Position numbers and translations under genes: made by a program. From the IMG/VR virus record IMGVR_UViG_2872158770_000006: DNA of 39,775 nt; one strand, given 5' to 3'. Positions 22,834 through 39,775 of the stretch are shown one piece after another. Within the stretch, counting starts at the first letter, position 1. Each line of letters starts with the position of its first letter. This stretch comes from a virus. Its lineage: Duplodnaviria; Heunggongvirae; Uroviricota; Caudoviricetes. Below the pieces are notes generated by a model, which was not told the origin of the DNA, ran no database searches, and saw nothing but the letters and a program-made list of their open reading frames with translations.

Positions 22834-23730
22834 ATGCCTGCCGTTGACCTTTCCCAGTTACCGGAACCCGCCATCATCGCGGAGCCTGACTTTGAGGCAA
22901 TTCTGGCTGACACAAAGGCCATGATGATTGCAGCTTATCCCGCCGAACAGCGTGAAGTCGTCTCCGCCGCACTGGAACTGGAATCGGAACCCCTGAACGT
23001 TATCGCTCAAACCATGTCGTTTCGTGAAATGCTGTTACGCCAGCGGGTCAATGAGGCCGCACGCGCCTGCATGTTGAGCCACAGCGCCGGAACAGACCTG
23101 GACAACCTCGCGGGCAATATGAACACAAAGCGCCTGGTTATCACTCCGGCAACGGATACCACCGACGTGGTGATGGAGAACGACACCTCGCTGAGACTGC
23201 GGGCGCAGCGGGCGTATGACGGCCTGAGTGTTGCAGGCCCGTCAGGCGCATACGAGTATTTTGCCCGCAGCGCCAGCGGTCTGGTGCGCGATGCGCGGGC
23301 CATCAGTCCGTCTCCGGCAAATGTGACGGTTTCCATCCTGTCCACTGAGGGCGACGGCACAGCAACGGAGGCGTTGCTTAATACCGTTCGCGCCGTTCTG
23401 AATGCAGAGGATACCCGCCCGGTGGCCGACCGCCTGACCGTACAGAGTGCCAGAATCGTGACATGGCGGCTGAATGCAAAACTGTACTTTTACCCCGGTC
23501 CGGAATCCGAACCTATTCTGGCTGCGGCTGAATCGTCGTTCAGGAAGTGGCTGGCTGAGCAGGGGCTTATCGGTCAGGACGTGGCGTTGTCCGCCATTGC
23601 TGCCGCACTGCATGTGCACGGTGTGCAACGCGTGGAGATAATCGAACCCACACAGAATATGGCCATCAGCGACATACAGGCGGCGCGCTGTGAGTCATTC
23701 ACCATCAGCGAAGGTGGGCGTAATGAGTAA
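22834..23730 (+). CDS. J: Baseplate protein, P2 gpJ family
   Basis: 298 aa; size and position. Confidence 0.8.
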   Translation: MPAVDLSQLPEPAIIAEPDFEAILADTKAMMIAAYPAEQREVVSAALELESEPLNVIAQTMSFREMLLRQRVNEAARACMLSHSAGTDLDNLAGNMNTKRLVITPATDTTDVVMENDTSLRLRAQRAYDGLSVAGPSGAYEYFARSASGLVRDARAISPSPANVTVSILSTEGDGTATEALLNTVRAVLNAEDTRPVADRLTVQSARIVTWRLNAKLYFYPGPESEPILAAAESSFRKWLAEQGLIGQDVALSAIAAALHVHGVQRVEIIEPTQNMAISDIQAARCESFTISEGGRNE

Positions 23731-24253
23731 TTCACTGTTACCACCATCAGCCAGCAATTTCATGCGTTGTGCCGAAGCCGTCGGAACACGCATTACAGAC
23801 ATTCCGGCAGACCTCAACACGCTGTGGTCGCCGGACACCTGCCCGGTGCATCTGCTGCCTTATCTCGCCTGGGCGTTTTCCGTTGACCGCTGGGATCGCA
23901 ACTGGCCGGAAGAGACAAAGCGACAGGTGATTCGTGATGCATGGCTGATACACCGACACAAAGGAACCATCAGCGCCCTGCGACGGGCCATTGAGCCGCT
24001 GGGATACCTCATTCGCGTGTCTGAGTGGTGGGAGTTCAACGGCGAACCCGGAACATTCAAGATTGATGTTGGCACGCTGGACAGTGGCGTGACGGAGGAA
24101 ATGTATCTGGAAATGGAGCGGTTGATTGCTGATGCCCGCCCGGTCAGCCGCCACATGACAGGGCTGAATATCATTCAGGAGATTCAGGGAGATATTTTCG
24201 CGGCAGCAGCAACTTACGACGGTGAAGTCATTACCATTTATCCGGACGATTAA
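23723..24253 (+). CDS. I: Baseplate protein, P2 gpI family
   Basis: 176 aa from ATG overlapping the J stop. Confidence 0.8.
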   Translation: MSNSLLPPSASNFMRCAEAVGTRITDIPADLNTLWSPDTCPVHLLPYLAWAFSVDRWDRNWPEETKRQVIRDAWLIHRHKGTISALRRAIEPLGYLIRVSEWWEFNGEPGTFKIDVGTLDSGVTEEMYLEMERLIADARPVSRHMTGLNIIQEIQGDIFAAAATYDGEVITIYPDD

Positions 24254-24255
24254 GC

Positions 24256-26226
24256 ATGAGTACCACAACACGAAAATTTAAAACCATTATCACCGATACG
24301 GGTGCAAAAAAATTAGCGCAGGCAACCGCGCCAGATGGGAAACCTGTCCGCCTGACACATATGGCCGTGGGTGACGGCGGCGGTACTTTACCCACGCCAG
24401 ACAGTAAGCAGACCCGTCTTGTGCATGAGGTGTGGCGACATACCGTTAATCGCGTCACCCTGGACGCAACACATCAGAACCACATTATTGCGGAGCTGGT
24501 TATTCCTCCTGAAACGGGCGGATTCTGGATCCGGGAAATTGGTGTGTTTGATGAGCACGGCGATTTGATCGCGGTAGGCAATACTGCCGAAAGTTACAAG
24601 CCAACCGTTGCCGAAGGATCCGGACGTGCACAAACATTTCGCACCATTCTGACCGTATCCAGCACTGCCACTGTGGCGCTTACCGTGGATAACACCATGG
24701 TGATGGCCACAGTGAATTACGTGGATGACAAACTGAAAGAGCATGAACAGTCACGACGTCACCCGGACGCCTCGCTGACCGCAAAAGGCCTTGTCCAGCT
24801 CAGCAACACCACCAACAGCACGTCTGAAACGCTGGCAGCGACACCAAAAGCCGTTAAGGCAGTAATGGATGAAACGAACAAGAAAGCCCCATTAAACAGC
24901 CCGGCACTGACCGGAACGCCAACAACACCAACTGCGCGACAGGGAACGAATAATACCCAAATCGCAAGCACGGCTTTCGTTATGGCTGCGATTGCCGCAC
25001 TTGTAGACTCTTCGCCTGATGCACTGAACACACTGAACGAGCTGGCGGCGGCGCTGGGCAACGACCCGAATTTTGCGACCACCATGACTAACGCGCTTGC
25101 GGGTAAGCAACCGAAAGATGCCACTCTGACGGCGCTGGCGGGGCTTGCTACTGCGGCAGACAGGTTTCCGTATTTTACGGGGAATGATGTCGCCAGCCTG
25201 GCAACCCTGACAAAAGTCGGGCGGGATATTCTTGCGAAATCGACCGTTGCCGCCGTTATCGAATACCTCGGTTTACAGGAAACGGTAAATCAGGCTTCTG
25301 GCGCATTACAGAAAAACCAGAACGGCGCAGATATTCCGGGGAAAGATACCTTCACCAAAAATATTGGTGCCTGCCGCGCATATAGCTCATGGCTGAATAT
25401 TGGTGGCGATAGTCAGGTCTGGACAACCGCGCAATTTATTTCGTGGCTGGAGAGTCAGGGAGCATTTAACCATCCTTACTGGATGTGCAAAGGCTCATGG
25501 GCTTATGCAAATAATAAGGTCATTACAGATACAGGTTGCGGAAATATTTGTCTTGCAGGTGCTGTGGTGGAAGTTATTGGCACTCGCGGCGCAATGACCA
25601 TACGCGTTACCACGCCGAGCACGTCCAGCGGTGGCGGAATTACTAACGCTCAATTCACTTATATTAATCATGGTGATGCTTACGCTCCTGGCTGGCGACG
25701 AGACTACAACACGAAAAATCAACAACCTGCATTTGCTTTAGGGCAAACAGGAAGCACTGTCGGAAATGATAAAGCTGTTGGCTGGAACTGGAATAGCGGG
25801 GTCTATAACGCAAACATTGGTGGCGCATCGACATTAATCCTCCACTTCAATATGAATACGGGGAGCTGCCCTGCTGTACAGTTCCGCGTGAATTACAGGA
25901 ACGGCGGTATTTTTTATCGTTCAGCGCGTGATGGTTATGGCTTTGAAGCTGACTGGTCAGAGTTTTACACCACAACCCGCAAACCCTCTGCGGGAGATGT
26001 TGGTGCATATACGCAGGCAGAATGTAACTCAAGGTTTATTACAGGTATTCGCCTTGGTGGTCTGTTATCTGTTCAGACATGGAATGGTCCCGGATGGTCT
26101 GACAGGTCAGGTTATGTTGTTACCGGTTCCGTTAACTCAAACAGAGATGAACTAATTGATACAACTCAGGCAAGGCCAATTCAGTATTGCATTAATGGGA
26201 CGTGGTATAACGCGGGGAGTATTTAA
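24256..26226 (+). CDS. H: Tail fibre protein (P2 gpH family): constant N-terminal part joined to a variable C-terminal part inside the invertible segment
   Basis: 656 aa; the crossover site lies in-frame at 25256-25281; C-terminus ...IQYCINGTWYNAGSI is shared with the alternative exon. Confidence 0.85.
   Translation: MSTTTRKFKTIITDTGAKKLAQATAPDGKPVRLTHMAVGDGGGTLPTPDSKQTRLVHEVWRHTVNRVTLDATHQNHIIAELVIPPETGGFWIREIGVFDEHGDLIAVGNTAESYKPTVAEGSGRAQTFRTILTVSSTATVALTVDNTMVMATVNYVDDKLKEHEQSRRHPDASLTAKGLVQLSNTTNSTSETLAATPKAVKAVMDETNKKAPLNSPALTGTPTTPTARQGTNNTQIASTAFVMAAIAALVDSSPDALNTLNELAAALGNDPNFATTMTNALAGKQPKDATLTALAGLATAADRFPYFTGNDVASLATLTKVGRDILAKSTVAAVIEYLGLQETVNQASGALQKNQNGADIPGKDTFTKNIGACRAYSSWLNIGGDSQVWTTAQFISWLESQGAFNHPYWMCKGSWAYANNKVITDTGCGNICLAGAVVEVIGTRGAMTIRVTTPSTSSGGGITNAQFTYINHGDAYAPGWRRDYNTKNQQPAFALGQTGSTVGNDKAVGWNWNSGVYNANIGGASTLILHFNMNTGSCPAVQFRVNYRNGGIFYRSARDGYGFEADWSEFYTTTRKPSAGDVGAYTQAECNSRFITGIRLGGLLSVQTWNGPGWSDRSGYVVTGSVNSNRDELIDTTQARPIQYCINGTWYNAGSI
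25256..25281. repeat. Left recombination site (gix/hix-like) for the serine invertase, inside the fibre gene
   Basis: TTATCGAATACCTCGGTTTACAGGAA; inverted repeat of the site at 28331-28356; matches the remembered gix/hix consensus TTATC.AAACC.CGGTTTACAGGAA. Confidence 0.75.
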
Positions 26227-26228
26227 CG

Positions 26229-26762
26229 ATGATGCACTTAAAAAACATTTCTGCTGGTAATCCTGAAACAAAAGAGCAATACCAGCTAACGAAACAATTT
26301 AACATCAAATGGCTTTATACAGAGGATGGGAAAAACTGGTATGAGGAACAAAAGAACTTTCAGCCTGATACGTTGAAAATGGTCTATGACCACAACGGCG
26401 TTATTATTTGTATTGAAAAGGATGTTTCAGCAATTAATCCGGAAGGCGCAAGCGTCGTTGAGGTTCCTGATATTACAGCAAATCGCCGGGCTGATATTTC
26501 AGGTAAATGGATGTTCAAAGATGGCGTAGTGATAAAGCGAACTTATACCGGGGAAGAGCAGAGGCAACAAGCGGAAAATGAAAAGCAAAGCCTGCTACAG
26601 CTCGTCAGGGATAAAACCCAGCTATGGGACTCACAGCTACGGCTGGGCATTATTTCCGACGAGAATAAACAAAAATTAACCGAGTGGATGCTCTATGCGC
26701 AGAAGGTCGAATCCACAGACACCTCCAGCCTGCCAGTAACGTTTCCCGAACAACCAGAATGA
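26229..26762 (+). CDS. G: Tail fibre assembly chaperone, P2 gpG family
   Basis: 177 aa, MMHLKNISAGNPETKEQYQL...; paralogous to the minus-strand copy at 26791-27318. Confidence 0.8.
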   Translation: MMHLKNISAGNPETKEQYQLTKQFNIKWLYTEDGKNWYEEQKNFQPDTLKMVYDHNGVIICIEKDVSAINPEGASVVEVPDITANRRADISGKWMFKDGVVIKRTYTGEEQRQQAENEKQSLLQLVRDKTQLWDSQLRLGIISDENKQKLTEWMLYAQKVESTDTSSLPVTFPEQPE

Positions 26763-26765
26763 AAC

Positions 26766-26790
26766 AAGGCCCGATATCGGGCCTTAATTT
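26766..26790. terminator. Bidirectional terminator between convergent G and G'
   Basis: Hairpin AAGGCCCGATATCGGGCCTT flanked by T-rich sequence on both strands. Confidence 0.6.
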
Positions 26791-27318
26791 TTACTCAGGC
26801 TTTTGTGGCCATTCTGGCTTTGCCGTATCCACACGGCTGACCAGAACACTGTAGCGTTCCCATGCTTCCAGTCGTGTGCGTTCCTCGTCCGTCGCCATAT
26901 TCAGCCTGACAGCGCGTTCCAGCGGCTGGATGACTGATTCAGCTTCGGAAAGCAATGCGGCCTTTTGTGATTCGGCCTGTTGTTGCTGTTCGTCAGCCGT
27001 ATAAATCCGTTTAACCACAGCTCCGTCCTTAAACATCCACTTACCGGAATCATCAGCACGACGATTAGCTGTAATATCAGGAACCTCAACGACGCTATAA
27101 CCTTCAGGGTTAAGCGTGGAGGCATCTTTGGTGATGGCGACAATAATATTATTTGCATCGTAAACAATCTTTATTGTGTCTGGCTGAAAGTTCTTCACTT
27201 CCTCATACCAGTTTTTTCCGTCCTCAGAGTAAAGCCAGATGACTCCGTGCTTCTTTGTTAACTCATACTGCTCCACTGTTTTAGCATTACCTGCTTTTAT
27301 GTTCTTTAAGTGCATCAT
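26791..27318 (-). CDS. Alternative tail fibre assembly chaperone (G'), expressed after inversion
   Basis: [20 protein letters not shown]... closely parallels G; lies inside the invertible segment on the opposite strand. Confidence 0.75.
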
Positions 27319-27319
27319 A

Positions 27320-28330
27320 TTAAATACTCGCCACATTATACCAAGTGCCATTTATATACTTTTGCACTGGCCTGTAATGAACGCCTGCAATATTATCGGC
27401 AGAGTTTTTTCCGGTATCCTGTACGTTAATCCCCGTCAGTACATAGCCTGACGGGCACTGAAAATTCCATGTTTGCCAGTTGTTCACTCCATAATATTGC
27501 TGTGAACCAAGTCGAACATCTTTCACATATCTGGAATCAAAATTGCCATAGTTGCCGGGAATAACTTGCGAGCCGCAAAGCCAGTTCCCGTTATTATCCA
27601 TGTACGCCTGACCATCGGTGCCATTGGCTGTCCTTGAGTTATTAATCATGTAGATGCCAAATTGCTTATTTCCCAGACCGCCAATCATAAATTTGCGGTC
27701 GGCATGGTCCTGACGGAGCAAAGCCTGAGCACCATCAGTGGATACCGCATTACGTCCCAAAATAACATTCTGGTCACGCATATGAATCCACATGCCGGTA
27801 CTACTGTTAATTGCAAAACGGTTTGCAAATATATCCCCTGTAACATCAAGACCATGCCCCATGCTTATCCGGCCAGTTCTGAGATTAAGCGTAAAGGGGC
27901 GTAGTGGCCCTATATTACCATTTTCCCCTTCATTCTCTCGTGTAGGGATGATATGCAGGCATTCTTCAGAACGACGAAAAATGGCACCAAAAGATGAATT
28001 AAATATCCTCAGTGCATTGACTGTCGATATTTTCACTTCACTGCTGAAAAGGGCTTCAACAAGAACAGACAAAGCATTCCATTTAAGATTCATCAGGTCT
28101 TTAGGCCGGGTGCCAATGATGCGGTGTCTCCATTTGAAATATTCATTGCCGTTGTTGCCTGTTTCAAACCACATGTAGGAATCGGTGTCTGCATCCGAAT
28201 TATTTTTAAACCCAATCTTTGCCCAGTCAGTATTTCGAATCCAGGCAAGGATTGAGTCGTTTTCAAAAGTAAGTCCACCGGACAACGTATCGCCATTTTT
28301 TTGCACGGCGTTACCAGCCTTGTTTACCGT
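27320..28330 (-). CDS. Promoterless alternative tail-fibre C-terminal segment (Hv'); becomes fused in-frame to the constant part after inversion
   Basis: Open frame runs from the right crossover site without its own start context; reading frame through the site matches the fibre gene frame (…[22 protein letters not shown]…); C-terminus …[12 protein letters not shown] parallels the resident variable end. Confidence 0.7.
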
Positions 28331-28356
28331 TTCCTGTAAACCGAGGTTTTAGATAA
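28331..28356. repeat. Right recombination site (gix/hix-like)
   Basis: TTCCTGTAAACCGAGGTTTTAGATAA, a near-exact match to the remembered gix/hix consensus, 55 bp upstream of the invertase start. Confidence 0.8.
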
Positions 28357-28410
28357 TGGCCGTTTCCGGCCTGCATGGCATGATTTGCGCTTTTGGACGG
28401 GAGATTCAGC

Positions 28411-28998
28411 GTGCTGATTGGCTATGTAAGGGTATCAACAAATGACCAGAATACAGACCTGCAACGAAACGCTCTTGTTTGTGCAGGATGTGAACAAATA
28501 TTTGAAGATAAATTAAGCGGGACAAAGACAGACCGACCGGGATTAAAACGCGCTTTAAAGCGCCTTCAAAAAGGTGACACGCTGGTTGTCTGGAAACTGG
28601 ATCGCCTCGGGCGAAGCATGAAACATCTGATTTCTCTCGTCGGGGAACTACGGGAGCGAGGAATTAATTTTCGCAGTCTGACCGACAGCATAGATACATC
28701 TTCTCCAATGGGGCGTTTTTTCTTCCACGTGATGGGTGCCCTGGCTGAAATGGAACGTGAATTAATTGTTGAACGTACACTGGCCGGACTGGCGGCAGCA
28801 CGCGCACGGGGGCGCACAGGCGGACGTCGACCGAAGCTGACAAAAGAACAGCATGAGCAAATAGCAAGGCTGATCAAAAACGGGCACGACAGAAAACAAC
28901 TGGCAATAATTTACGGCATTGGTATATCGACGATTTATCGTTACCACCCCGCAGGAGAATCAATCGGAACAATAGAGAAGAGTCAGGAAACAAAATAA
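28411..28998 (+). CDS. Serine DNA invertase of the Gin/Hin/Cin/Pin family
   Basis: GTG start; MLIGYVRVSTNDQNTDLQRNAL... with catalytic Ser in YVRVST; near-identical to remembered Mu Gin over the first roughly 140 aa; C-terminal HTH. Confidence 0.9.
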   Translation: MLIGYVRVSTNDQNTDLQRNALVCAGCEQIFEDKLSGTKTDRPGLKRALKRLQKGDTLVVWKLDRLGRSMKHLISLVGELRERGINFRSLTDSIDTSSPMGRFFFHVMGALAEMERELIVERTLAGLAAARARGRTGGRRPKLTKEQHEQIARLIKNGHDRKQLAIIYGIGISTIYRYHPAGESIGTIEKSQETK

Positions 28999-29030
28999 CC
29001 GCTAATCTGACCATTAGCGGTTTTTGTGTT
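28999..29030. terminator. Bidirectional rho-independent terminator between the invertase (+) and U (-)
   Basis: Stem CCGCTAAT/ATTAGCGG with loop CTGACC, followed by TTTTTGTGTT on the plus strand and TTATTTTGTTT on the minus strand. Confidence 0.6.
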
Positions 29031-29033
29031 AAA

Positions 29034-29528
29034 TCAGAACAACCCTTTAACTGAACTGGCCGCGCTGTTAAGGGATGATGTTACCTTATCTTTGAAGCCG
29101 GACAGCATATCGCTGAACGATGAGGATTGCAGGCGCTCCCGCAAATCCTCATCACAGCGTTCAAGAGTCAGTGAAAATTCTATCTTTTTCGCCTTACCGT
29201 AGCGATCAAACTCGGAGCGGGTCGTATTCGTTTCGGTCAGGACATACATGCCGTAAATCTGCCCGACGCCATCAATCAGAGGCCAGGGTCGTCCTGTATA
29301 CGCCTGCGTGGTCAGCAGCGACAGCGACACTTCGCCACCTGTAATTTCAGGATAAAGCACACCAGAAAGAACGATGCGCTCATCACCTGCACCGATATAC
29401 TGCCAGCTTGCCGAACGGTTAACGCGTTCATTTTTCACATGCCGCCAGCTTTTGTTTTGCTGTAACTGCTGATGCGGCAATGTACGCAGCTCAAAAACAA
29501 ACATGCCGTAGATCATCATCATGGCCAT
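29034..29528 (-). CDS. U: Tail protein, P2 gpU family
   Basis: 164 aa; SWRH, TGG, LIDG and SEF segments align with remembered P2 gpU. Confidence 0.8.
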   Translation of the reverse strand: MAMMMIYGMFVFELRTLPHQQLQQNKSWRHVKNERVNRSASWQYIGAGDERIVLSGVLYPEITGGEVSLSLLTTQAYTGRPWPLIDGVGQIYGMYVLTETNTTRSEFDRYGKAKKIEFSLTLERCDEDLRERLQSSSFSDMLSGFKDKVTSSLNSAASSVKGLF

Positions 29529-29534
29529 GACTCC

Positions 29535-32378
29535 TCAATCTTTATCGTAAAAACTGCCACGCCCGGCACGGGCGCGCCGTTCCATTTCTGCCCTGACCAT
29601 TTCACCGACCAGTTTCGCCAGTTCGCGGGGATTCTGCGTAACAACGTTATGCAGATGAACATGAATTTCACCACCAAATCCGGAGGCAACAGGCTCCCGG
29701 TTACGGGAAGTTACAGGAACTGATGCCACTGGAGAGCGTATGGCCTCCGCCACCGGGCGGGAGCTGGCCGCAACAACAGGGACCAGCGCCGGAGGCAGCG
29801 GAGCCGGGACCACGGGTGTGATATTAATTGCGGGGGCAGGCTTACTGACCTGCGCAATCTTCCGCTCCTGCCACTCCCCACGAACAGCAAGTGCGCGGGG
29901 CAGGTTCTTAAAGACAATATCGCCGGGGCCAATGCGTTTTTTCGTCTCATCAACCAGCTTACCTGTGTTATCAGCAATTTTGCTGAGTCTGCGTAGCGTC
30001 CCGGTATTGCTGTCTGTGAGCGGTTTGTTGTCTTTGGGTTTATCACCTCCGGTGCCATTGCCATTTTCCACAGGCTTCGGCGGATTGATTTTCGCCAGGT
30101 CCCCCTGAAGCAAGGCAACCTTGTCCTGAAGAATGGCCGCACGCTGTGCGTCTTCGATTTTCTTGCGCGCCCTTTCCGCTTCATCCGGAAGGACGCCAAG
30201 TTTTTCAAGTATCCACGCCAGCGTATCCAGTAGCATTTTTGCAGGTGTCAGAACAAGTTGTAACGCACCGCCAAGAACGTTACCGAATATCTCGCCAGCA
30301 CTGGCACATTTATCCAGCGTTTCCTTGCTGGACTCCATCGGTGACAGCAGCGATTTAAACCAGTTAAAGACCTGAATAATCCCATCGCGCACGACATCAA
30401 AAACAGGGCCAAACCGTTCAAAGGTTTCGCGCAACGGGGTCAGCCTTTCCATAATCCCGCTGAACACCCCGGCAAAAAATGCCCTGATGGGATCCCAGTA
30501 TTTCCAGATAAGAACGGCAGCTCCGGCAAGCGCAGCCACGATAAGACTAACCGGACTGAACAGCGCCCCGATAGCGCCACCAAGTAAAGAAACGGAACCC
30601 GTCACCATTCCCCATAATGCAGGCAGAACCCTGACAACATTCATTGATTCGGTCAGGAGAGAAAAACCGAGACGCAACGTAGCCAGCTTCCCGTGAAGCA
30701 CCCCAATAACCAGAGACAACGAACCAACCGTTGCTGTTGTCGCCAGCAGTGCGCCTCCCGCTATCAGTAACTGGCGCGTCAGTGCCGGGTGGGCCTGCGC
30801 CAGCGCCGTCACCTTTGAGACAACCCGCGTGAGCCACTGCGTGACAGAACGCAGCGGACCGTCAACCAGATCACTGATGCGAATACGCAGACCTTCCCAT
30901 GCACTGCCGAGTGATTTCAGGTTGCCATCAAGGTTATTGGCCATAACCTTTGCCGTGCGTTCTGCCTCACCGCGCGCGCCTTCAAGTTCTTTTCTCAGTT
31001 TGGCTAAGAAGCCGTCACCTGCCGCATCAACGAGGCCCATAAATGATGTGAAAGCCTCTTCTCCGGCAATGTCCTTAAAGAACGATACCCGGTCAACCTC
31101 CCCGTATTTGCGGGTGGCTTTATAGAGATCGGCCAGCACATTCTCCATCGGGCGCATTTTGCCTTTGGCGTCAGCAACTGACACCCCCAGCTCTTTCAGT
31201 GCTTCTGCCGCTGCCTTTGGCGGTGATGACAGATTGGCCAGGCTTTTACGCAACGCTGTACCTGCATCACTCCCCCTGATACCCATCTTCGCCAGCACGC
31301 CCGCCATCGCTGCGGCCTGCTCCAGCGATATTCCCAGCTTACCCGCCACCGGACCTGCATATTTCATGGTTTCGCCCAGTGCGCGAAGGTCAGTGTTGGT
31401 ACGGGTAAACGCTGCGGTAAGTGTGTCACCGACCCGGTCCATCTGGTCAGCAGAGAGGCCGAACTGCGTCAGGATATTGGAACCAATATCCGCCGTCTCG
31501 CCGAGGTCCATACCGCCAGCCGTTGCCATGCTCAGCACGCCGGGAAGCGCAGCCTGAATGGCCTGCGGTGTGAAACCAGCCATTGCAAGAAATGCCTGTC
31601 CACTGGCGGCATCGCCTGCGGTGAACTGCGTTTCAGAGCCAAGTTTTAACGCCTGCTCACGCAGCGCCTTAAACTGCGGGCTGTTTTTATCGATTCGCGT
31701 CAGTGCCTGAACACGGGACATCTCTTTCCCGAACCCGATAGCGGGCTGCAAAAAACGCCCGGCAGCATAGCCGCCCGCTGCCGCCGCACCTGTTGCCAGC
31801 GCACCACCTGTTTTCAGTTTTCCCGCTGTTTCCTGCGCGCGTGAATACCGCTCACGCGCCTGCGTTACACGCGCAAGCGCCCGCCGTTCGCGTTCAAGCT
31901 GGTTGTTGTATTGTCCGGTGCGTCTGATGGCCTGCTGGATGGTGTTATCGCTGCCTGTCAGGGAAATGCCGTGGCGTTTCAGCTCTCCGCCAAGTTCCCG
32001 CATTTTCTGAATTTCCCGTGTGCGCGATTCATTCAGGCGTTCAAGCCGGGTGCTTAACTGCTGCATCAGCTTTTGTTGTTTTTCGCTGAGCACTGTACCC
32101 GTGCGTTGTAACTGATTAAGGGCGTTAAGCTGGCGTCGTGCTTTCACGATGCCCGCATCCGCTTTACTGACAGCGTCACGGGCGCGCTCAAATGAACGCG
32201 CCTGACGCTCGAGATTTTTGATCGCCCCCTGCGTTCGCTGGATGGAGTCACCAAACTGCCCCATCAGGCGGCGGGCGTTTTCGGCAGGCCGGGTCAGCCT
32301 GTCAACGGCGCTGAAAGCGACCCGGATATCAAGAGTCTTCATTGTCTGCATTCCCGCTGCGAAGTGCCGCCCGCTCAC
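29535..32378 (-). CDS. T: Tail tape measure protein, P2 gpT family
   Basis: 947 aa, N-terminal coiled coil, central Ala/Gly-rich hydrophobic stretches; typical tape-measure composition and position. Confidence 0.85.
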   Translation of the reverse strand: MSGRHFAAGMQTMKTLDIRVAFSAVDRLTRPAENARRLMGQFGDSIQRTQGAIKNLERQARSFERARDAVSKADAGIVKARRQLNALNQLQRTGTVLSEKQQKLMQQLSTRLERLNESRTREIQKMRELGGELKRHGISLTGSDNTIQQAIRRTGQYNNQLERERRALARVTQARERYSRAQETAGKLKTGGALATGAAAAGGYAAGRFLQPAIGFGKEMSRVQALTRIDKNSPQFKALREQALKLGSETQFTAGDAASGQAFLAMAGFTPQAIQAALPGVLSMATAGGMDLGETADIGSNILTQFGLSADQMDRVGDTLTAAFTRTNTDLRALGETMKYAGPVAGKLGISLEQAAAMAGVLAKMGIRGSDAGTALRKSLANLSSPPKAAAEALKELGVSVADAKGKMRPMENVLADLYKATRKYGEVDRVSFFKDIAGEEAFTSFMGLVDAAGDGFLAKLRKELEGARGEAERTAKVMANNLDGNLKSLGSAWEGLRIRISDLVDGPLRSVTQWLTRVVSKVTALAQAHPALTRQLLIAGGALLATTATVGSLSLVIGVLHGKLATLRLGFSLLTESMNVVRVLPALWGMVTGSVSLLGGAIGALFSPVSLIVAALAGAAVLIWKYWDPIRAFFAGVFSGIMERLTPLRETFERFGPVFDVVRDGIIQVFNWFKSLLSPMESSKETLDKCASAGEIFGNVLGGALQLVLTPAKMLLDTLAWILEKLGVLPDEAERARKKIEDAQRAAILQDKVALLQGDLAKINPPKPVENGNGTGGDKPKDNKPLTDSNTGTLRRLSKIADNTGKLVDETKKRIGPGDIVFKNLPRALAVRGEWQERKIAQVSKPAPAINITPVVPAPLPPALVPVVAASSRPVAEAIRSPVASVPVTSRNREPVASGFGGEIHVHLHNVVTQNPRELAKLVGEMVRAEMERRARAGRGSFYDKD

Positions 32379-32858
32379 GCCAGCTAACCACTTCGCCGGG
32401 CGTCATCATGAAGATTTCGGCGGGCGACCAGTTAAAAATGGCGGCAATATCCGCCACAAAGTCTTCTATGTGCTCAAAGCACACAACCGTGATCAGGCTT
32501 CCGTCGCCTGTTCGTTCTTCTCGCCAGAGTCCGCACCGCTCAAAAAATTTACGGCAACCACACATAACTGAATAAAGTCACGGGATGCCATTTTTTTGAT
32601 CGTCACTTCATCCAGTCGCGGTGATGTCACGCGTGACAGCAGCGTAAACATGGATTCCGCTTTCAAATTCAGCACATCAGACAGCGACAAATCTCGCAGA
32701 GATCCAGCCTGCTCAATAGCCCCGGTGATCTCCACATACGTGATTTTTTCGCCGCCTCGCTCAATTGGTTGGGTAAGTTTTACGCCACGCTCACTGGTTT
32801 CTTTCACAGTGTCAGCAACGACCGTGTTTTCGGTATCGATGTTTTTCGTCTCTTTCAT
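32329..32858 (-). CDS. E: Tail assembly chaperones E and E+E' (programmed -1 frameshift); E alone is 32493-32858
   Basis: Slippery heptamer T_TTT_TTG (minus strand, complement of 32541-32547) 16 codons before the E stop; the -1 frame continues as ...FFERCGLWREERTGDG... to 32329, overlapping the T start. Confidence 0.75.
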
Positions 32859-32912
32859 CAGGAAACTCCTTTCAGTCAGAGGCGACGCACTGCGCCGCCT
32901 GCATATTACTTA

Positions 32913-33425
32913 TCAGCCAAGCCCGAGCGCGGAACGGATGCGATCGGGCACAATGTCCCTGCCGTCCTTCCGGTAAATGAAGTTCAGCAGGTCAATCTCC
33001 CACAACGGGCGATCGTTAACACTCAGCTTGTAGTAGGTGTTTTTAATGGCGTAAGTGTGTGATGTGGCTTCGCCCTGTTTGGCTTCCCCCATATCAATTT
33101 CCGTCACACGTCCGCGCATTTCGACTTCATACAGGTCGCTTTCAGCGTCGGTGTAGTATTCACCCGCAAAACGCAGCAGCGTACCGTCAATCGTGCCGCC
33201 ATACTTAAGGAACAGCTCACGAACTGCGCCCCCCATGACAAAGCTCGCATCAAGCGCGGAGTCATCCAGGCCGAGATCAATACTTACCGCTCCCATCATG
33301 CCACCACCCCGGTAGCTGTCGGTTTTGCGCGTCAGCTTAGGCAGAGTGACGGACGTCACCTTACCCACTTCGTTTTCACCATCCACAAACAGCGTAAAAA
33401 AGCGAAGATGTTTTGGTACAGCCAT
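32913..33425 (-). CDS. FII: Tail tube protein, P2 gpFII family
   Basis: 170 aa; size and position immediately downstream of the sheath gene. Confidence 0.85.
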   Translation of the reverse strand: MAVPKHLRFFTLFVDGENEVGKVTSVTLPKLTRKTDSYRGGGMMGAVSIDLGLDDSALDASFVMGGAVRELFLKYGGTIDGTLLRFAGEYYTDAESDLYEVEMRGRVTEIDMGEAKQGEATSHTYAIKNTYYKLSVNDRPLWEIDLLNFIYRKDGRDIVPDRIRSALGLG

Positions 33426-34609
33426 CAGGCACCTCCCAGCACCGCAAATGCGGGACCAAAGAATTCATCAGTAAACGACTGGTAAAGCTCCATGTCTTCC
33501 AGCGGGGGAACAGGCGTATATTTGTAGCGAATACGCACGCGCCCCTGACGTAAATTCGTGGTGCCGTTATCCACCACGTCATACCAGCACGACGCCCCAA
33601 TCAGTTTCCCGGCAGTAACCAGTGAATCCAGTTTTGCCCTGATGGCACCGATAACATCCTTCACGTTCGCAGGCGTCAGTGGACTGTCGATGGTTTCAAA
33701 CTGCGCTTCCGCAATTGAATCAGCCAGCACCTGTGCGGTTCGGGTATACACCTCAAAGATGTAGGCGTTCGTTTCCGGTGTGCGGTTGCCCCAGAAGCGG
33801 AACCCGTTGCGACGAATAATGGTCGTGATTTCTTTGTTGTTGAGGCTGTTGGCATCACTGTCTTCGGCCTGCAACGACCAGAACACATGCCTGGACATCC
33901 CCAGCACATTTTTAACCGGAACGTTGGACAGCGATTTGTGCCAGCCCTGCTCATGGTCAATGTACGCACGAAGGCCGCACGCATAGGCAGGCGCGGGGAA
34001 CGTTTCGTTTTTGCCACTTTTCGGGTTGTAGGCGATGAAGTCCGGCCATAAGAGCATCACCTCACGTTCGTTGAATTTCTGGCGGTAGGTAATTGCCTCA
34101 GCCATCGTGTTACAGTCATGACATGAGGCATACACAAACGCGCGCAGTTTACCCGCAATCACGCACAGGGATTTTGTCACCGCCTCCGTGTCCAGCTCCG
34201 GCGCGGCCAGAATACGCGGACGGTATCCGATGCTTTCATCCTGCTCTGCAACAAGCAGCGCATACATCCCCGTATAGCTGCCGTCAGATTCAGAACCACC
34301 GATAACCAGTTGATCCTGCGTTTTTCCGTCTTCTTCTTTGTGTTCAGCCACGCGAACGACGATCACCTTTGTGCTCACCTGGTCTGCGATGGCCTTAAGC
34401 GCACGATAAAGCGTCCCCGTTGTTCCGCATTTTCCCAGCACGTCATTGACGCGGGGCAGCAGTGTGGGCTTGTTCAGCGGGAACAGCTCCGCGTCCGCAT
34501 CATCCGCCGTTGCCACGATACCGATAACGCTGGAATCAACATCGTTAATCGCTGTTACCAGGTCGGTATTTTCCGTAACACGGGCACCATGAAAACGAGT
34601 TTCACTCAT
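33425..34609 (-). CDS. FI: Contractile tail sheath protein, P2 gpFI family
   Basis: 394 aa; size and position; start overlaps FII. Confidence 0.9.
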   Translation of the reverse strand: MSETRFHGARVTENTDLVTAINDVDSSVIGIVATADDADAELFPLNKPTLLPRVNDVLGKCGTTGTLYRALKAIADQVSTKVIVVRVAEHKEEDGKTQDQLVIGGSESDGSYTGMYALLVAEQDESIGYRPRILAAPELDTEAVTKSLCVIAGKLRAFVYASCHDCNTMAEAITYRQKFNEREVMLLWPDFIAYNPKSGKNETFPAPAYACGLRAYIDHEQGWHKSLSNVPVKNVLGMSRHVFWSLQAEDSDANSLNNKEITTIIRRNGFRFWGNRTPETNAYIFEVYTRTAQVLADSIAEAQFETIDSPLTPANVKDVIGAIRAKLDSLVTAGKLIGASCWYDVVDNGTTNLRQGRVRIRYKYTPVPPLEDMELYQSFTDEFFGPAFAVLGGA

Positions 34610-34766
34610 AGCTTCAACCCCTTGTATCCGTTAAATGATTCGGCAACAATCATCACCCACCACGCGCGTAATCTCACCCCTGCGCCATTCTCCCGCCACG
34701 GCGACAACAAAAAGCAGTAACCCCCTCCGCACGCACATGCGACCATGCCACACAGGGAGGGAGCAG

Positions 34767-35876
34767 ATGACCGACACCACCATGCAATTGCTCAGTCAGG
34801 GCACAGACCCCGTGAAAATGCCGGATTTTGATATTCTCGCGGAGGGTAAAACGCTGTCAGGCGTGGCAGAGCGCCTGATGAGCCTGTCACTGACCGACAA
34901 CCGGGGATTTGAGGCGGACCAGCTCACCATCACGCTGGATGATGCGGATGGTCAGTTGCAGCTACCGCCACGGGGCGCGCGCCTGACGGTTCTCATTGGC
35001 TGGAAGGGAGAACCGCTGACAGAAAAAGGCACTTACATTGTTGATGAAATCGCTCACGAAGGACCGCCGGACAGGCTGACTGTTTCAGCCAGAAGCGCAG
35101 ATTTTCGGGCTGAATTTAACGTTAAACGTGAGGTGTCCTGGCATGATGTGACCGTTGAGCGTGTGGTATCCGCCATCGCTCATCGGTATGGTCTGAAACC
35201 GCAAATCAGCGAAATGCTGATGGATATCGAAATCGACCACGCCGACCAGACCGAAGAAAGCGACATGTCCTTCCTTACGCGCATGGCGGAAATGCTGGGC
35301 GCAATCACCACGGTAAAAAGCGGTAATCTGTTATTCATCATGCCCGGTGGTGGCGTGAACGCACAGGGCCAGCCGTTGCCCTCGTTCGCCATCACACGCA
35401 GCAGCGGCGATCGCCATCAGTTCCGCATTGCTGACCGCGAAGCGTATACGGGGGTACGCGCTTACTGGCTTGATCTTAATTACGGGAAAAAGAAAAAAGT
35501 CAGCGTGAAACGCCGCAAACCGTCAAAACCAAAAAAGGAGAAAAGCAGCAGCCGGGAAGGCGACTATATGGAAGGTGCGGAAGGCAACGTGTTTGTGTTA
35601 CGCAAAACTTATCAGAACGAGCAGGCAGCAAGACGTGCAGCGGCGGCAAAGTGGCAGCAGCTACAACGCGGAGCCGCATCATTCTCCATCACACTGGCGC
35701 ATGGACGTGCAGAACTCTACCCCGAAATGCATGGCACGGTAACAGGATTTAAAAGCGAGATTGATAATCAGGACTGGATTATTGCAAAAGCCGAGCACAC
35801 CATTGATAACAGCGGCTTTACCACGCAGCTTGAGCTTGAGGCAAAAATCCCGGAATGGATAGCAGAAACAGAGTGA
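34767..35876 (+). CDS. D: Late control/tail protein D (Phage_GPD family)
   Basis: ATG at 34767 with GGGAGG RBS; LSLTDNRGFEADQLTITLDDADGQLQLPPRGARLTVLIGWKG matches the conserved GPD N-terminal region. Confidence 0.8.
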   Translation: MTDTTMQLLSQGTDPVKMPDFDILAEGKTLSGVAERLMSLSLTDNRGFEADQLTITLDDADGQLQLPPRGARLTVLIGWKGEPLTEKGTYIVDEIAHEGPPDRLTVSARSADFRAEFNVKREVSWHDVTVERVVSAIAHRYGLKPQISEMLMDIEIDHADQTEESDMSFLTRMAEMLGAITTVKSGNLLFIMPGGGVNAQGQPLPSFAITRSSGDRHQFRIADREAYTGVRAYWLDLNYGKKKKVSVKRRKPSKPKKEKSSSREGDYMEGAEGNVFVLRKTYQNEQAARRAAAAKWQQLQRGAASFSITLAHGRAELYPEMHGTVTGFKSEIDNQDWIIAKAEHTIDNSGFTTQLELEAKIPEWIAETE

Positions 35877-36116
35877 GCAACTTAAATGTATTAACTCAGA
35901 ACGGATCAACACACTCACAACATAGAGTCAATATAGCTGCTCGCTTTGTTCCAGCAAGGATGCCTATTTCTAAGGAAAAACAGAGCAGAAACATATGGTG
36001 TTTTCCTACCTGACATCAGGGGTGGTAGACTGGCCCCCTGAATCTCCAGACAACCAGTATCACTTAAATAAGTGATAGTCTTAATACTAGTTTTTAGACT
36101 AGTCATTGGAGTACAG

Positions 36117-36482
36117 ATGATTGATGTCTTAGGGCCGGAGAAACGCAGACGGCGTACCACACAGGAAAAGATCGCAATTGTTCAGCAGAGCTTTGAACCG
36201 GGGATGACGGTCTCCCTCGTTGCCCGGCAACATGGTGTAGCAGCCAGCCAGTTATTTCTCTGGCGTAAGCAATACCAGGAAGGAAGTCTTACTGCTGTGG
36301 CCGCCGGAGAACAGGTTGTTCCTGCCTCTGAACTTGCTGCCGCCATGAAGCAGATTAAAGAACTCCAGCGCCTGCTCGGCAAGAAAACGATGGAAAATGA
36401 ACTCCTCAAAGAAGCCGTTGAATATGGACGGGCAAAAAAGTGGATAGCGCACGCGCCCTTATTGCCCGGGGATGGGGAGTAA
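36117..36482 (+). CDS. insC: IS2 OrfA (InsC)
   Basis: [41 protein letters not shown]... matches the remembered IS2 InsC. Confidence 0.9.
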
Positions 36483-37345
36483 GCTTAGTCAGCCGTTGTC
36501 TCCGGGTGTCGCGTGCGCAGTTGCACGTCATTCTCAGACGAACCGATGACTGGATGGATGGCCGCCGCAGTCGTCACACTGATGATACGGATGTGCTTCT
36601 CCGTATACACCATGTTATCGGAGAGCTGCCCACGTATGGTTATCGTCGGGTATGGGCGTTGCTTCGCAGACAGGCAGAACTTGATGGTATGCCTGCGATC
36701 AATGCCAAACGTGTTTACCGGATCATGCGCCAGAATGCGCTGTTGCTTGAGCGAAAACCTGCTGTACCGCCATCGAAACGGGCACATACAGGCAGAGTGG
36801 CCGTGAAAGAAAGCAATCAGCGATGGTGCTCTGACGGGTTCGAGTTCTGCTGTGATAACGGAGAGAGACTGCGTGTCACGTTCGCGCTGGACTGCTGTGA
36901 TCGTGAGGCACTGCACTGGGCGGTGACTACCGGCGGCTTCAACAGTGAAACAGTACAGGACGTCATGCTGGGAGCGGTGGAACGCCGCTTCGGCAACGAT
37001 CTTCCGTCGTCTCCAGTGGAGTGGCTGACGGATAATGGTTCATGCTACCGGGCTAATGAAACACGCCAGTTCGCCCGGATGTTGGGACTTGAACCGAAGA
37101 ACACGGCGGTGCGGAGTCCGGAGAGTAACGGAATAGCAGAGAGCTTCGTGAAAACGATAAAGCGTGACTACATCAGTATCATGCCCAAACCAGACGGGTT
37201 AACGGCAGCAAAGAACCTTGCAGAGGCGTTCGAGCATTATAACGAATGGCATCCGCATAGTGCGCTGGGTTATCGCTCGCCACGGGAATATCTGCGGCAG
37301 CGGGCTTGTAATGGGTTAAGTGATAACAGATGTCTGGAAATATAG
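36440..37345 (+). CDS. insD: IS2 transposase OrfB (InsD), DDE domain
   Basis: 301-aa ORF matching the remembered IS2 InsD; overlaps insC in the -1 frame. Confidence 0.9.
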
Positions 37346-37437
37346 GGGCAAATCCAGGTGGTAAGAATCATGCTTTGATAACCAATTGATAACTATTATT
37401 ATATTAATCTAACACCATTGACATAGTTGAGGTTTGA

Positions 37438-38940
37438 ATGAACAAAAAGCTGTATTTATTCCCAGACTCAAACATTTTTCTACAATGCAAGGACTTGACG
37501 CAGGTAAATTTTTCCGAGATTACTGCTTGTGATGAAGTATGTATCATTATTACAAGGCCCATTCAGCAAGAGATTGACCGCCAGAAAGGGCAAGGTAATT
37601 CCCGCCTATCCAAAAAAGCAAGGAAGGCTGCTAGCCTATTTAATCAAGTAGTTGATTCAACTGACATGACTCTTGTTATTCGTGAACGCTCGCCGCGAGT
37701 TTTTCTTACCATGGATCTAAGCCTGAAACCATGTGAACAGTTATCTGAACAATTGGATTATCAGGAGGCCGACGATCGTTTTGTTGGTATTGCGGCAGGG
37801 TATTGCGCTGACGATCCAGATTCGGAGGTGGCAATCATTACCAATGATAGCGGTCCACGTTTTTCAGCAATAAAACATAATATAATCTGCTATAAAGTGC
37901 CTTCTTCATGGTTGCTTCCTGCTGAGCCAGATGAAAAGGATAAACAAATTAAATTGCTGGAAGCTAAGCTGAAGCAATTCACTCAGTCTATGCCCGATTT
38001 CAGCATTAAAGTAGCCGATGACGAGCAATTAAATATTGTACTTCCTTATTATACAGCTTTATCTGAATATGAAGTTGATAATTTGCTTTGTCAACTAACG
38101 GATGCATTCCCATTGGTTACAAACTTTGACAATGAACAAACTACCCCACAATCACTAGAAAAAATCATCAAGTCATTTAGTCAACAGGAGTATTTCCCTG
38201 TATCAGCAGATGATATTTCTCTTTATAAAGAAAAACATTATCCACTTTGGAAAAAGCAGTGTGAAGAAATACTGAAAAACTGTCATACTCATATTAATCC
38301 GAAGGCAATAAATTACCCGCTGTCGTTTTTATTACAAAACACAGGTTATACTATCGCTGAACGTGCTGTGGTAACATTTACAGCAAAAGGAGATTTTCGT
38401 CTGTGTGGATTTAATTGGGAGATAATGGAAGAGCTGACTGAAAGCAAAAGGATTGACCTACCTTCAGCCCCTACCGCCCCCAAAGGAAAATGGCGTAGTG
38501 TATGTGGCGTAACAGAAAGAATGCCTTACGCTGGGGGAGCTTTGGAAACACCGCTATCCAGTATAATTTCAAAAGAAATTGGTCCTTTGTTATCTCTTAC
38601 TCCAACAGAAAGGGATAAAAACGATTTTTATTATAAAGAAAAGAGAAATGAGCCAGTTCAAGTTGTATCGCTGGAATGCGAAGAGTGGCGTCATCAAGTC
38701 AAAGAAGAAATATTCCCGTTGTTCGTATATACAGCCAACAAACCAAAGAAAGTGAATGGTGCAATTGAGGTGAGAGTTGATGCAAATAACCTTACCAATC
38801 CGGTCATTAAAACATTTAAATTAAAAATAACTATAGAAGAACATAGTGCATTTTCAACCATAACAGAAATGGTGCAGACATACATTCAAGAGCAGAAGAA
38901 AAGACAGAAAAGTTCTATTAGCGCACAAATCAAAACATGA
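37438..38940 (+). CDS. AT-rich 500-aa cargo protein with predicted N-terminal PIN-like nuclease domain and uncharacterised C-terminal region
   Basis: ATG with GAGG RBS; N-terminus LYLFPDSNIFL…(V)CIIITRPIQQEIDRQ…DDRFVGIAAGY…AIITNDSG gives the spacing of four acidic residues (D10, E45, D112/113, D137) typical of PIN-fold nucleases; markedly lower GC than flanking tail genes by eye. Confidence 0.6.
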   Translation: MNKKLYLFPDSNIFLQCKDLTQVNFSEITACDEVCIIITRPIQQEIDRQKGQGNSRLSKKARKAASLFNQVVDSTDMTLVIRERSPRVFLTMDLSLKPCEQLSEQLDYQEADDRFVGIAAGYCADDPDSEVAIITNDSGPRFSAIKHNIICYKVPSSWLLPAEPDEKDKQIKLLEAKLKQFTQSMPDFSIKVADDEQLNIVLPYYTALSEYEVDNLLCQLTDAFPLVTNFDNEQTTPQSLEKIIKSFSQQEYFPVSADDISLYKEKHYPLWKKQCEEILKNCHTHINPKAINYPLSFLLQNTGYTIAERAVVTFTAKGDFRLCGFNWEIMEELTESKRIDLPSAPTAPKGKWRSVCGVTERMPYAGGALETPLSSIISKEIGPLLSLTPTERDKNDFYYKEKRNEPVQVVSLECEEWRHQVKEEIFPLFVYTANKPKKVNGAIEVRVDANNLTNPVIKTFKLKITIEEHSAFSTITEMVQTYIQEQKKRQKSSISAQIKT

Positions 38941-39183
38941 GGGTGTACTCAAATAATACAATGCTATAGTAAATCTATAAGTGCATAACTATTTCCTGAT
39001 CTTTTCCCAAAATAGATGACAGGATAAAAAACATTCCAATCTTTTACAGGCTTTGGATAAATCGTATCAAAGCCTATTTCTTCAAGAGTTAAATCACCGC
39101 TTTTCGCTCGAAACGGACTGGCTGTTGGAGTATGAGCCAGAACAACTTAGAATAGCCCCTGCACTACGTTAAGGGAGGTCGCT

Positions 39184-39444
39184 ATGTTCCGTTGTCCGCT
39201 TTGTGGCGCATCTGCCCGTATCCGCACCAGTCGTCCGGAAAATGATTCAAACACCGTGCGGCAAAAGTATTACCAGTGTAACAATCTGGAATGCGGCGTA
39301 TGCTTCTCAACACTGGAAGCTTTCCATAAATTCACATCAAAACACGCCTCCGGCGTTCACTCTTCAGAAGATATCCCGTGGCATGATCTGCCAGCTTCAC
39401 ACAGGGGAAACAATCAGATGAGCTTGCCTTTACCTCAGAATTAA
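39184..39444 (+). CDS. ogr: Ogr/Delta-family zinc-finger late transcription activator
   Basis: MFRCPLCGASARIRTSR...YYQCNNLECGVCFSTLEAF parallels P2 Ogr (MFHCPLC...RTSR...YHQCQNVNCSATFIT.E); GGGAGG RBS. Confidence 0.8.
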   Translation: MFRCPLCGASARIRTSRPENDSNTVRQKYYQCNNLECGVCFSTLEAFHKFTSKHASGVHSSEDIPWHDLPASHRGNNQMSLPLPQN

Positions 39445-39504: not shown

Positions 39505-39717
39505 ATGGTCGGAGGGAATACCCGAAGGCCAGATGTGGAAAGGCCCCGGAAAACATCTCTGTTTAACCGAGGCCCTAACCGCATTACCTTGACAAGTGAA
39601 AGGTTAGCGCCTCTCCGGAAAAGGAGCAAGTGCTATGTCGCAAAAATCGCTTACGACCATCACGTTCTGCGTGACGGCAATCCTCATCATCTGGATGTTG
39701 CACGGTTCGCTGTGTGA
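39505..39717 (+). CDS. Mok-like overlapping leader ORF of the hok-like locus (putative)
   Basis: 70-aa ORF starting upstream of the hok-like gene and terminating inside it in another frame, the arrangement seen for mok/hok. Confidence 0.35.
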   Translation: MVGGNTRRPDVERPRKTSLFNRGPNRITLTSERLAPLRKRSKCYVAKIAYDHHVLRDGNPHHLDVARFAV

Positions 39718-39775
39718 AATACGGATGAGCTTCTGGGGAGCGGAGTTTGCGGCGTTCTTACAGTGTAAGCAGTAA
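39635..39775 (+). CDS. Hok/Gef-family type I toxin (46 aa, single TM)
   Basis: MSQKSLTTITFCVTAILIIWMLHGSLCEIRMSFWGAEFAAFLQCKQ has the Hok signature (TM helix, then SLCEI/L..., then E.AAF.A.); AAGGAG RBS; stop is the last codon in the window. Confidence 0.6.
   Translation: MSQKSLTTITFCVTAILIIWMLHGSLCEIRMSFWGAEFAAFLQCKQ

Follow-up and report, generated by a model that had tools for sequence, protein, structure and literature searches.

DS-3 (WP_022645725.1) is a validated Escherichia coli defence system in which a single PIN-domain protein acts without an antitoxin, requires its catalytic residues and is proposed to remain autoinhibited until infection (PMC13092281). DS-5, also validated, uses a PIN effector and combines a PIN_12 protein with a DUF5830/AcrIF4-like partner (PMC13092281), and HEC-03, a further validated anti-phage system, joins an ABC ATPase to a VapC-like PIN protein. 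Here we describe a gene for a 500-amino-acid (aa) PIN-domain protein, hereafter the PIN gene, which probably encodes a stand-alone anti-phage defence or abortive-infection nuclease and was acquired horizontally as prophage cargo. It lies between the P2-type tail gene D and the late-gene activator ogr in a prophage sequence of 39,775 nucleotides (IMG/VR record IMGVR_UViG_2872158770_000006); this whole stretch is referred to as the window.

PIN domains are best known from VapC toxins, members of the PIN superfamily of ~130-150 aa that consist of the PIN domain only, are preceded by an overlapping antitoxin gene, and arrest growth by cleaving tRNA or rRNA. As for the genomic setting, P2-like phages carry defence cargo at the hotspots old/tin (gpA|Q) and Z/fun (Rousset et al. 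2022, PMC9122126), and a third accessory-gene hotspot has been reported in the interval from a tail gene to the CI repressor (10.1101/2024.10.15.618418), an interval in which the D|ogr junction falls. The papers PMC9122126 and 10.64898/2026.02.27.708500 make no mention of PIN or of ogr, and WP_001035742, the RefSeq counterpart of the protein described here, goes unmentioned in the searchable literature.

The junction between D and ogr is a true cargo slot. In the window it is made up as follows (a dot marks features without strand).

34635..35876, plus strand: P2-type tail gene D, left flank (Pfam Phage_GPD, E=5e-17)
35877..35887, dot: left slot repeat GCAACTTAAAT; BLAST similarity to the empty-site prophage (L009) stops at 35887
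35888..36025, plus strand: left part of the insert, whose first ~30-45 bp are common to other cargo variants and not to the empty site
39141..39155, dot: right slot repeat AACAACTTAGAATAG; similarity to the empty site resumes at 39140
39184..39444, plus strand: ogr, late-gene activator, right flank (Pfam Ogr_Delta, E=5e-14)

Relative to the empty site, the insert thus spans 35888..39140, with a short imperfect direct repeat (GCAACTTAnAAT) at both ends. A preliminary description, made from the sequence of the window alone, had taken the PIN gene for an insertion between two genes that are adjacent in P2, and this is borne out by the empty-site prophage, where 40 bp separate D from ogr. It had also suggested looking for other genes at this junction; among 11 related E. 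coli prophages with a related D gene (including loci L009-L018), nine states of the slot were found.

Empty: 40 bp between D and ogr
The PIN gene
A protein with a GmrSD N-terminal domain (GmrSD_N), in a prophage at the ihfA site, the same site as that of the O111 prophage
A KAP NTPase, PifA-like (PADLOC, E=1e-64)
A HetE-N protein (labelled GapS6a by NCBI) together with a 930-aa protein
A DUF3800 protein
A SEC-C-motif 'YecA family' protein
Two distinct hypothetical proteins, which make up two of the nine states

No annotation or defence model matches either of the two hypothetical proteins or the 930-aa protein that accompanies GapS6a, three cargos in all, and the DUF3800 and SEC-C cargos have a domain label only. 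Conserved short end sequences (35877..35920 and 39099..39155 in the window) are common to all cargo-bearing variants and missing from the empty site. D genes at least 90% identical to that of the window occur in at least 1,137 E. coli genomes, in most of which similarity to the window ends ~11 bp past the D stop codon; the PIN gene is found in 59 of 5,426 complete E. coli genomes, and across all 59 it is at least 99% identical. Among the 25 of 59 matches listed, strain names are largely O111, and going by these names the gene appears to be carried by Shiga-toxin-producing strains of O111. The idea that the PIN gene is a core gene of P2-like phages, or one of their conserved structural or regulatory components, which would have undermined the preliminary description, is rejected on these frequencies, on the existence of an empty site, and on relatives of the gene that sit elsewhere, at four prophage junctions in all and in non-phage elements too (see below).

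Note that both flanks of the slot show peculiarities of their own. RefSeq annotation of D is inconsistent, giving either a ~1.1-kb 'late control D' gene or an 801-bp 'VgrG/Pvc8 family' gene with a pseudo-fragment on the opposite strand (L001 5003..5856; L009, L010, L013-L018), a difference that looks artefactual because the underlying DNA is nearly identical. Past ogr, a Hok/Gef-family killer gene (window 39635..39775) follows in every sampled prophage that reaches that far (L001, L009-L011, L013-L018); because it is present whatever the integration site (ihfA, serS, tRNA-Leu), it is prophage-borne. No Sok-type RNA was found at the Rfam gathering score anywhere in the window.

The PIN gene itself, with the parts of the protein discussed below, has the following layout.

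37375..37402, plus strand: sigma-70 promoter-like site (TTGATA, 16 nt, TATTAT; 10/12 consensus matches)
37438..38940, plus strand: open reading frame (ORF) of the PIN gene, ~1.5 kb, ATG start, 500 aa
37438..37902, plus strand: PIN_4 nuclease domain, aa 1-155 (Pfam, alignment, model and fold matches)
37903..38304, plus strand: linker helix, small alpha/beta unit, disordered loop and long helix, aa 156-289 (models; no Pfam match)
38305..38937, plus strand: immunoglobulin (Ig)/macroglobulin-like beta-sandwich, aa 290-470, and C-terminal helix, aa 472-499

Its start had been put at 37357, which is in fact the first base past a copy of the insertion sequence IS2; the ORF starts at 37438. Composition sets the gene apart, as the preliminary description had it when it spoke of a low-GC ORF: its GC content is 0.383 (0.319 at third codon positions), as compared with 0.528 for window positions 1..35887 and third-position values of ~0.55-0.66 in core ORFs, and its codon-adaptation index relative to core genes is 0.585, most core genes reaching 0.65-0.79. 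E. coli O111:H- 11128 has a counterpart 225 bp past D, WP_001035742.1, annotated as 'PIN domain-containing protein'.

That the N-terminus belongs to the PIN superfamily is supported by profile, fold and acidic residues alike. Pfam PIN_4 (PF13638) matches aa 10-151 with E=4.5e-8 and 33.9 bits, above the gathering cut-off of 21.9, and most homologues bear PF13638 in precomputed annotation. The motifs on which a PIN-like N-terminus had first been proposed are all present in the translation (LFPDSNIF at aa 7-14, QQEIDRQ at aa 43-49, DDRFVG at aa 112-117 and ITNDSG at aa 134-139). Thirty-seven full-length homologues, with identities from 73% down to 28%, were aligned; E45, D47, D112 and D137 are the same in all of them and D10 and D113 in at least 90%, and these residues make up the classic acidic set of PIN domains. 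An AlphaFold model of the full-length protein, computed from a homologue alignment, has a predicted local distance difference test (pLDDT) score of 84, and above 88 over aa 1-160, where strands alternate with helices in a manner consistent with the three-layer alpha/beta/alpha PIN fold. Foldseek places this N-terminus with the PIN domains of SMG6 (2hww), Nmd4 (8rdd), Dis3 (6d6q_K) and AF0591 (1o4w), so that the fold check proposed at the outset came out in favour of a PIN domain; a profile search of the PDB returned no solved structure related by sequence below E=0.1. VapC, SMG6 and Dis3 are metal-dependent RNA endonucleases, and nuclease activity is predicted for the protein described here.

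How mobile is the gene? A 1.74-kb segment of the window recurs in a P2-like prophage of Rahnella, together with a minus-strand frame at its right end.

37386..39120, plus strand: mobile cassette, 78.9% nucleotide identity to the Rahnella prophage over 1,759 aligned positions
38964..39146, minus strand: 60-codon frame without a start codon (…SPFRAKSGDLTLEEIGFDTIYPKPVKDWNVFYPVIYFGKRSGNSYALIDLL*), interrupted in the Rahnella copy by an upstream stop

The cassette comprises 52 bp upstream of the PIN ORF, the ORF itself and ~180 bp downstream of it, and in Rahnella it lies between the tail genes S and V, that is, at another junction than D|ogr. Together with the foreign composition, this supports the earlier suggestion of a horizontally acquired moron. 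The minus-strand frame shows 53% amino-acid identity to Rahnella at ~79% nucleotide identity. We considered whether it could be a live partner gene and rejected this on the missing start codon, the low amino-acid identity and the stop codon in Rahnella; as far as the sequence goes, the cassette probably carries along here the decaying remnant of a gene from a previous location.

Relatives of the PIN gene are found at three other junctions of P2- and 186-like prophages and in a variety of further settings. Twelve loci with relatives were inspected, and those whose surroundings are informative are listed here; R-M stands for restriction-modification and TA for toxin-antitoxin.

L004, Enterobacter: in the gpA|Q interval, adjoining a HEC-04-type ATPase-TOPRIM gene (E=4e-44)
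L032, P2-like contig from IMG/VR: between gpA and Q, as the sole cargo
L008, 186-like prophage: directly beside int, at the prophage edge
L003, Pectobacterium: in an integrative element with a type IV secretion system
L005, Raoultella: beside a phage remnant
L006: adjoining a complete Gabija pair (GajA E=2e-207, GajB E=7e-169)
L020: in a type I R-M locus, in the order hsdM, TA pair, hsdS, PIN_4 gene, TA pair, hsdR
L022: in a type I R-M locus, directly after an hsdS-like gene (Methylase_S)

In the Enterobacter locus, a ParM/StbB pair also adjoins the PIN homologue within the same gpA|Q interval. VapBC-type pairs stand directly beside the relatives in L019 and L020, and distant relatives occur on nine plasmids of alpha- and beta-proteobacteria. 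No conserved neighbour or partner gene was found across the 12 loci, and because of this the functional unit is taken to be a single gene. Co-location with defence systems recurs, with Gabija in L006, HEC-04 in L004 and hsdS of type I R-M systems in L020 and L022, as judged from these individual loci; embedding inside R-M operons has been validated as a signature of defence genes (Payne et al.).

The C-terminal ~340 residues had been called unrecognised. This holds for databases, in that no Pfam, NCBIfam or PADLOC model matches the C-terminal ~345 residues and PHROGs yields a single weak match, to a family of unknown function, at aa 442-488. It does not hold for structure and conservation, which point to a conserved, family-specific module ending in an Ig-like beta-sandwich. 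Modelled separately, the C-terminal ~345 residues reach a pLDDT of 83 and a predicted template modelling score of 0.70, and are predicted to consist, in this order, of a small alpha/beta unit, a long helix, a beta-sandwich and a C-terminal helix. Within the middle region, the models place a linker helix at aa 166-183, a disordered loop at aa 236-247 and the long helix at aa 257-286, and the beta-sandwich contains a disordered loop of variable length at aa 357-388. Invariant in this module are C414, W417, R418, H419, A449, N451 and an R-D-P-N-x-F-Y-Y stretch, the beta-sandwich thus carrying an invariant C-x-x-W-R-H motif. DNA-binding Ig domains are among the matches to the C-terminal fold and score no better than dozens of Ig domains that do not bind DNA.

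An exhaustive search with a profile hidden Markov model of the C-terminal module alone retrieves 1,351 sequences, each representing a cluster at 50% identity, and 698 of these score E<=1e-30. Because nearly all of the best 150 of these 1,351 are proteins of ~500 aa in which the module occupies approximately residues 186-500, and because PIN_4 is still present in nine of ten longer outliers, the pairing of PIN_4 with this module is, on the sequences sampled, fixed rather than modular. The sole exception is P0053, a metagenomic protein of 745 aa in which the module follows a polytopic membrane N-terminus. This may be a rare effector swap or an artefact of assembly or frameshift, being a single, possibly chimeric sequence with a tail that resembles read-through. 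We do not rely on it, and effector swapping of the C-terminal module, which we considered, is rejected as the module is found almost only behind PIN_4. Relative to the Rahnella orthologue, dN/dS is 0.23 overall, 0.13 in the PIN domain, 0.26 in the middle region and 0.28 in the beta-sandwich region. Judged by these ratios, the whole protein is under purifying selection and its C-terminus evolves fastest. A search of IMG/VR yielded 11 loci, nine of them the same prophage as the window.

The arrangement seen in the window is complicated by an IS2 element that had initially been taken as part of it.

36026..37356, plus strand (transposase ORFs): IS2, 1,331 bp, flanked by a 5-bp GGTGG duplication at 36021-36025 and 37357-37361

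The element, whose matching sequence is labelled IS2-family transposase in RefSeq, sits 76 bp 5' of the PIN-gene ATG with its transposase ORFs pointing at the PIN gene. When IS2 and one GGTGG are removed in silico, a single segment of 2,465 bp results that is 99.96% identical to E. coli O111:H- 11128. The junction between IS2 and the PIN gene occurs in none of the 5,426 complete E. coli genomes, and because of this absence the insertion is considered recent and strain-specific. On these alignments IS2 is a later insertion into the upstream region of the cassette and stands outside the original arrangement.

Putative signals for expression remain on the near side of IS2. A GAGG ribosome-binding site lies 5 nt 5' of the ATG, and both it and the promoter-like site are located 3' of IS2 and intact. 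The sigma-70 promoter proposed earlier, read there with a 17-nt spacer and ATTATA, corresponds to this same site, 19 bp past IS2; its status as a promoter is unproven since the number of promoter-like sites in the upstream region of the PIN gene (six) equals that expected from shuffled sequence (5.9). In the Rahnella copy of the cassette, the -10 element is kept and the -35 element as first read is weakly conserved. Searching for Ogr-dependent late promoters, we found no TGT-N12-ACA dyad 5' of the PIN gene, keeping in mind that this exact pattern also misses the phage's own late promoters and has four matches where ~10.6 are expected by chance. No intrinsic terminator was found after the PIN ORF and no Rfam RNA family anywhere in the window.

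What, then, does the protein do? As an accessory gene in a variable hotspot, where it is swapped with GmrSD_N, PifA-like and GapS6a-annotated cargos, the PIN gene shows the generic hallmark of a defence gene. The possibility of a single-protein defence nuclease had been raised from the outset, and the genomic context strongly supports it, whereas the protective role as such is something we infer. Because PIN domains such as those of VapC, SMG6 and Dis3 are RNA endonucleases, and given the precedent of DS-3, we propose the following mechanism. In the lysogen, a promoter of its own would drive the gene, and the C-terminal module would keep the PIN nuclease inactive. Upon infection the module would bind a signal, for example a phage protein or nucleic acid, and the released nuclease would cut RNA (tRNA, rRNA or mRNA), so that phage production is halted by abortive infection. 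All steps past the intact PIN domain, that is, nuclease activity, RNA substrate, autoinhibition, C-terminal sensing and the protective phenotype, we infer.

A number of observations weigh against a defensive nuclease. The argument for defence is one of genomic context throughout. No PADLOC-DB 2.0 family matches the PIN protein at E<=1 and NCBIfam has no match to it; no relatives were found in 50,697 sequenced phage genomes; and two of the 12 relatives' loci (L019 and L021) bear no marks of mobile elements or defence. The promoter at 37375..37402, plausible from its sequence, comes without statistical support, and IS2, 76 bp upstream, or read-through from it could change expression of the PIN gene. 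An Ig-like fold, as modelled, is a generic binding scaffold that backs a sensor role weakly and could instead serve to target the nuclease to a substrate. Finally, since the module is virtually never found with another effector, the argument from effector swapping that is made for sensor domains does not apply here.

The alternative that survives best, unlikely as we judge it to be, is that the protein is a solitary toxin: an addiction-type or stress RNase, for example a fused or orphaned toxin-antitoxin element, which stabilises its element or arrests growth. PIN domains owe their fame to VapC, VapBC-type pairs adjoin the relatives in L019 and L020, a Hok/Gef killer gene lies just 3' in the prophage, and one might imagine the C-terminal module to be a covalently fused antitoxin. 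Yet the protein falls outside the definition of VapBC, for it measures 500 aa, its PIN domain is of the PIN_4 and not the VapC subtype, and in none of the 12 loci with relatives is there a conserved antitoxin gene upstream; moreover, the genes that occupy the same slots (GmrSD-like, PifA-like and GapS6-type) point to phage defence. In addition, this explanation overlaps with that of a defensive nuclease, many toxin-like single proteins in such slots having proved to be defence systems.

We also think it unlikely that the nuclease serves the phage or mobile element that carries it, whether by degrading host or competitor RNA in the lytic cycle, by counter-defence or by processing phage RNA. At least five P2- or 186-like prophages carry the gene, phage hotspots are known to hold anti-defence genes as well (10.1101/2024.10.15.618418), and SMG6 and Dis3, whose PIN nucleases are among the fold matches, act in RNA turnover, all of which would suit such a role. 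However, some relatives reside outside phages, and a lytic role is implausible for those found on plasmids, inside chromosomal type I R-M operons, adjoining Gabija or on an integrative element that encodes a type IV secretion system. Moreover, the gene is absent from most related prophages and from the 50,697 sequenced phage genomes, and the alternative cargos at D|ogr are defence genes.

An improbable variant of the defence explanation has the nuclease act on DNA, as a structure-specific or restriction-like enzyme that degrades incoming phage or plasmid DNA; the DNA-binding Ig domains among the fold matches might hint at this, but they do no better than the many Ig domains that bind no DNA, the nearest PIN fold matches (SMG6, Nmd4, Dis3) are RNA endonucleases, and helicase, ATPase and modification-sensing domains are all missing from the protein. 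That the ORF is a functionless hitchhiker, decaying or silenced especially after the arrival of IS2 76 bp 5' of its ATG, is very improbable: although the prophage contains a second insertion sequence (4612..5430) and a decaying gene remnant just 3' of the PIN gene, the ORF is full-length, 59 genomes carry its region with at least 99% identity, the three protein parts have dN/dS values of 0.13-0.28, the catalytic residues are intact, the promoter-like and ribosome-binding sites are untouched, and IS2 is recent (0/5,426).

A stand-alone defence nuclease therefore fits the combined contexts better than any of its rivals. If this is what the gene encodes, a compact, self-contained RNase immune protein of 1.5 kb would be added to the defence repertoire of E. 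coli, and a widespread family would have been missed by current defence-annotation tools, as the lack of a PADLOC match indicates. The susceptibility of the O111 lineage to other phages, including Stx phages or therapeutic ones, could then be changed by this cargo. The D|ogr junction takes its place as a working defence-cargo slot beside gpA|Q and Z/fun, with D and ogr as a simple anchor for mining further candidates, and the fixed pairing of PIN_4 and beta-sandwich provides a tractable system in which to study how a nuclease is silenced without an antitoxin.

A bolder version of this idea can be formulated, which we hold to be possible and somewhat doubtful. The PIN protein might belong to a large, as yet unnamed family of single-protein defence systems in Proteobacteria, with at least 1,351 clusters at 50% identity and with prophages, integrative elements, plasmids and R-M operons as its carriers, in which an SMG6-type PIN RNase is gated by an Ig-like sensor that detects a conserved phage component through its invariant C-x-x-W-R-H and R-D-P-N-x-F-Y patch. 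Each member would then unite an RNase and a pattern-recognition receptor in one protein, the sensor fold being new to bacterial immunity, and the gene in the window would be the founding E. coli example of the family.

Several other features of the prophage deserve brief mention. Between host btuC and the integrase, two ORFs on the minus strand (window 1174..2212; GC ~0.43), encoding a 183-aa coiled-coil protein and a protein of 165 aa, show weak coiled-coil matches only in PADLOC; the int|att position that they occupy has been described as a minor P2 defence hotspot (2026 preprint). The gpA|Q hotspot (window 10154..12014) contains a ParM/StbA actin-like segregation gene and a 174-aa ORF, and no recognised defence system. 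The second insertion sequence, at 4612..5430 in the early region, encodes a transposase of the IS3 family with an rve integrase core, and with two such elements the prophage may be defective. Past the tail-fibre genes H and G (26791..28998), a serine invertase gene of the Resolvase family (28393..28998) adjoins minus-strand ORFs, which suggests an invertible tail-fibre segment for host-range switching at 26791..28998.

Returning to the systems with which we began, DS-3 comes closest, in that both it and the protein in the window are single PIN proteins and we propose for the latter the same logic of autoinhibition. However, DS-3 has 340 aa and a VapC-like PIN domain that is split between the N- and C-termini, whereas the protein in the window has 500 aa, with a contiguous N-terminal PIN_4 domain followed by a beta-sandwich. 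Identity with DS-3 or HEC-03 is thus rejected on length and architecture, the proteins being set apart by their descriptions. DS-5 and HEC-03 are two-gene systems, unlike the family described here, which has no conserved partner; for DS-5, the best BLASTP match to WP_021513009.1 has E=1.9 and there is no DUF5830 partner gene. ATPase genes do adjoin two of the relatives, but they belong to Gabija and HEC-04, which are complete in themselves, and so differ from the pairing in HEC-03. Nor do the features of VapC, its size, its PIN-only build and its upstream antitoxin, apply: a VapBC system was considered and rejected on the length of 500 aa, on the absence of a conserved adjacent gene in 12 loci, and on the missing start codon of the only frame that travels with the gene. 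With the eukaryotic SMG6, Nmd4 and Dis3 and the archaeal AF0591 the protein shares a Pfam family, a fold and a set of acidic residues, while accessory domains and biology differ.

The slot, finally, resembles the established P2 hotspots, whose cargo likewise consists of one or two swappable, low-GC defence genes between core genes, and relatives of the PIN gene occupy one of them, gpA|Q; D|ogr is less well described than either gpA|Q or Z/fun. To find candidate defence genes in P2 hotspots is to be expected and is not in itself surprising, and a single-protein nuclease defence in a prophage hotspot is of a known kind. What is new is the putative regulatory module, which has not been described before, and the less described slot in which the gene resides.

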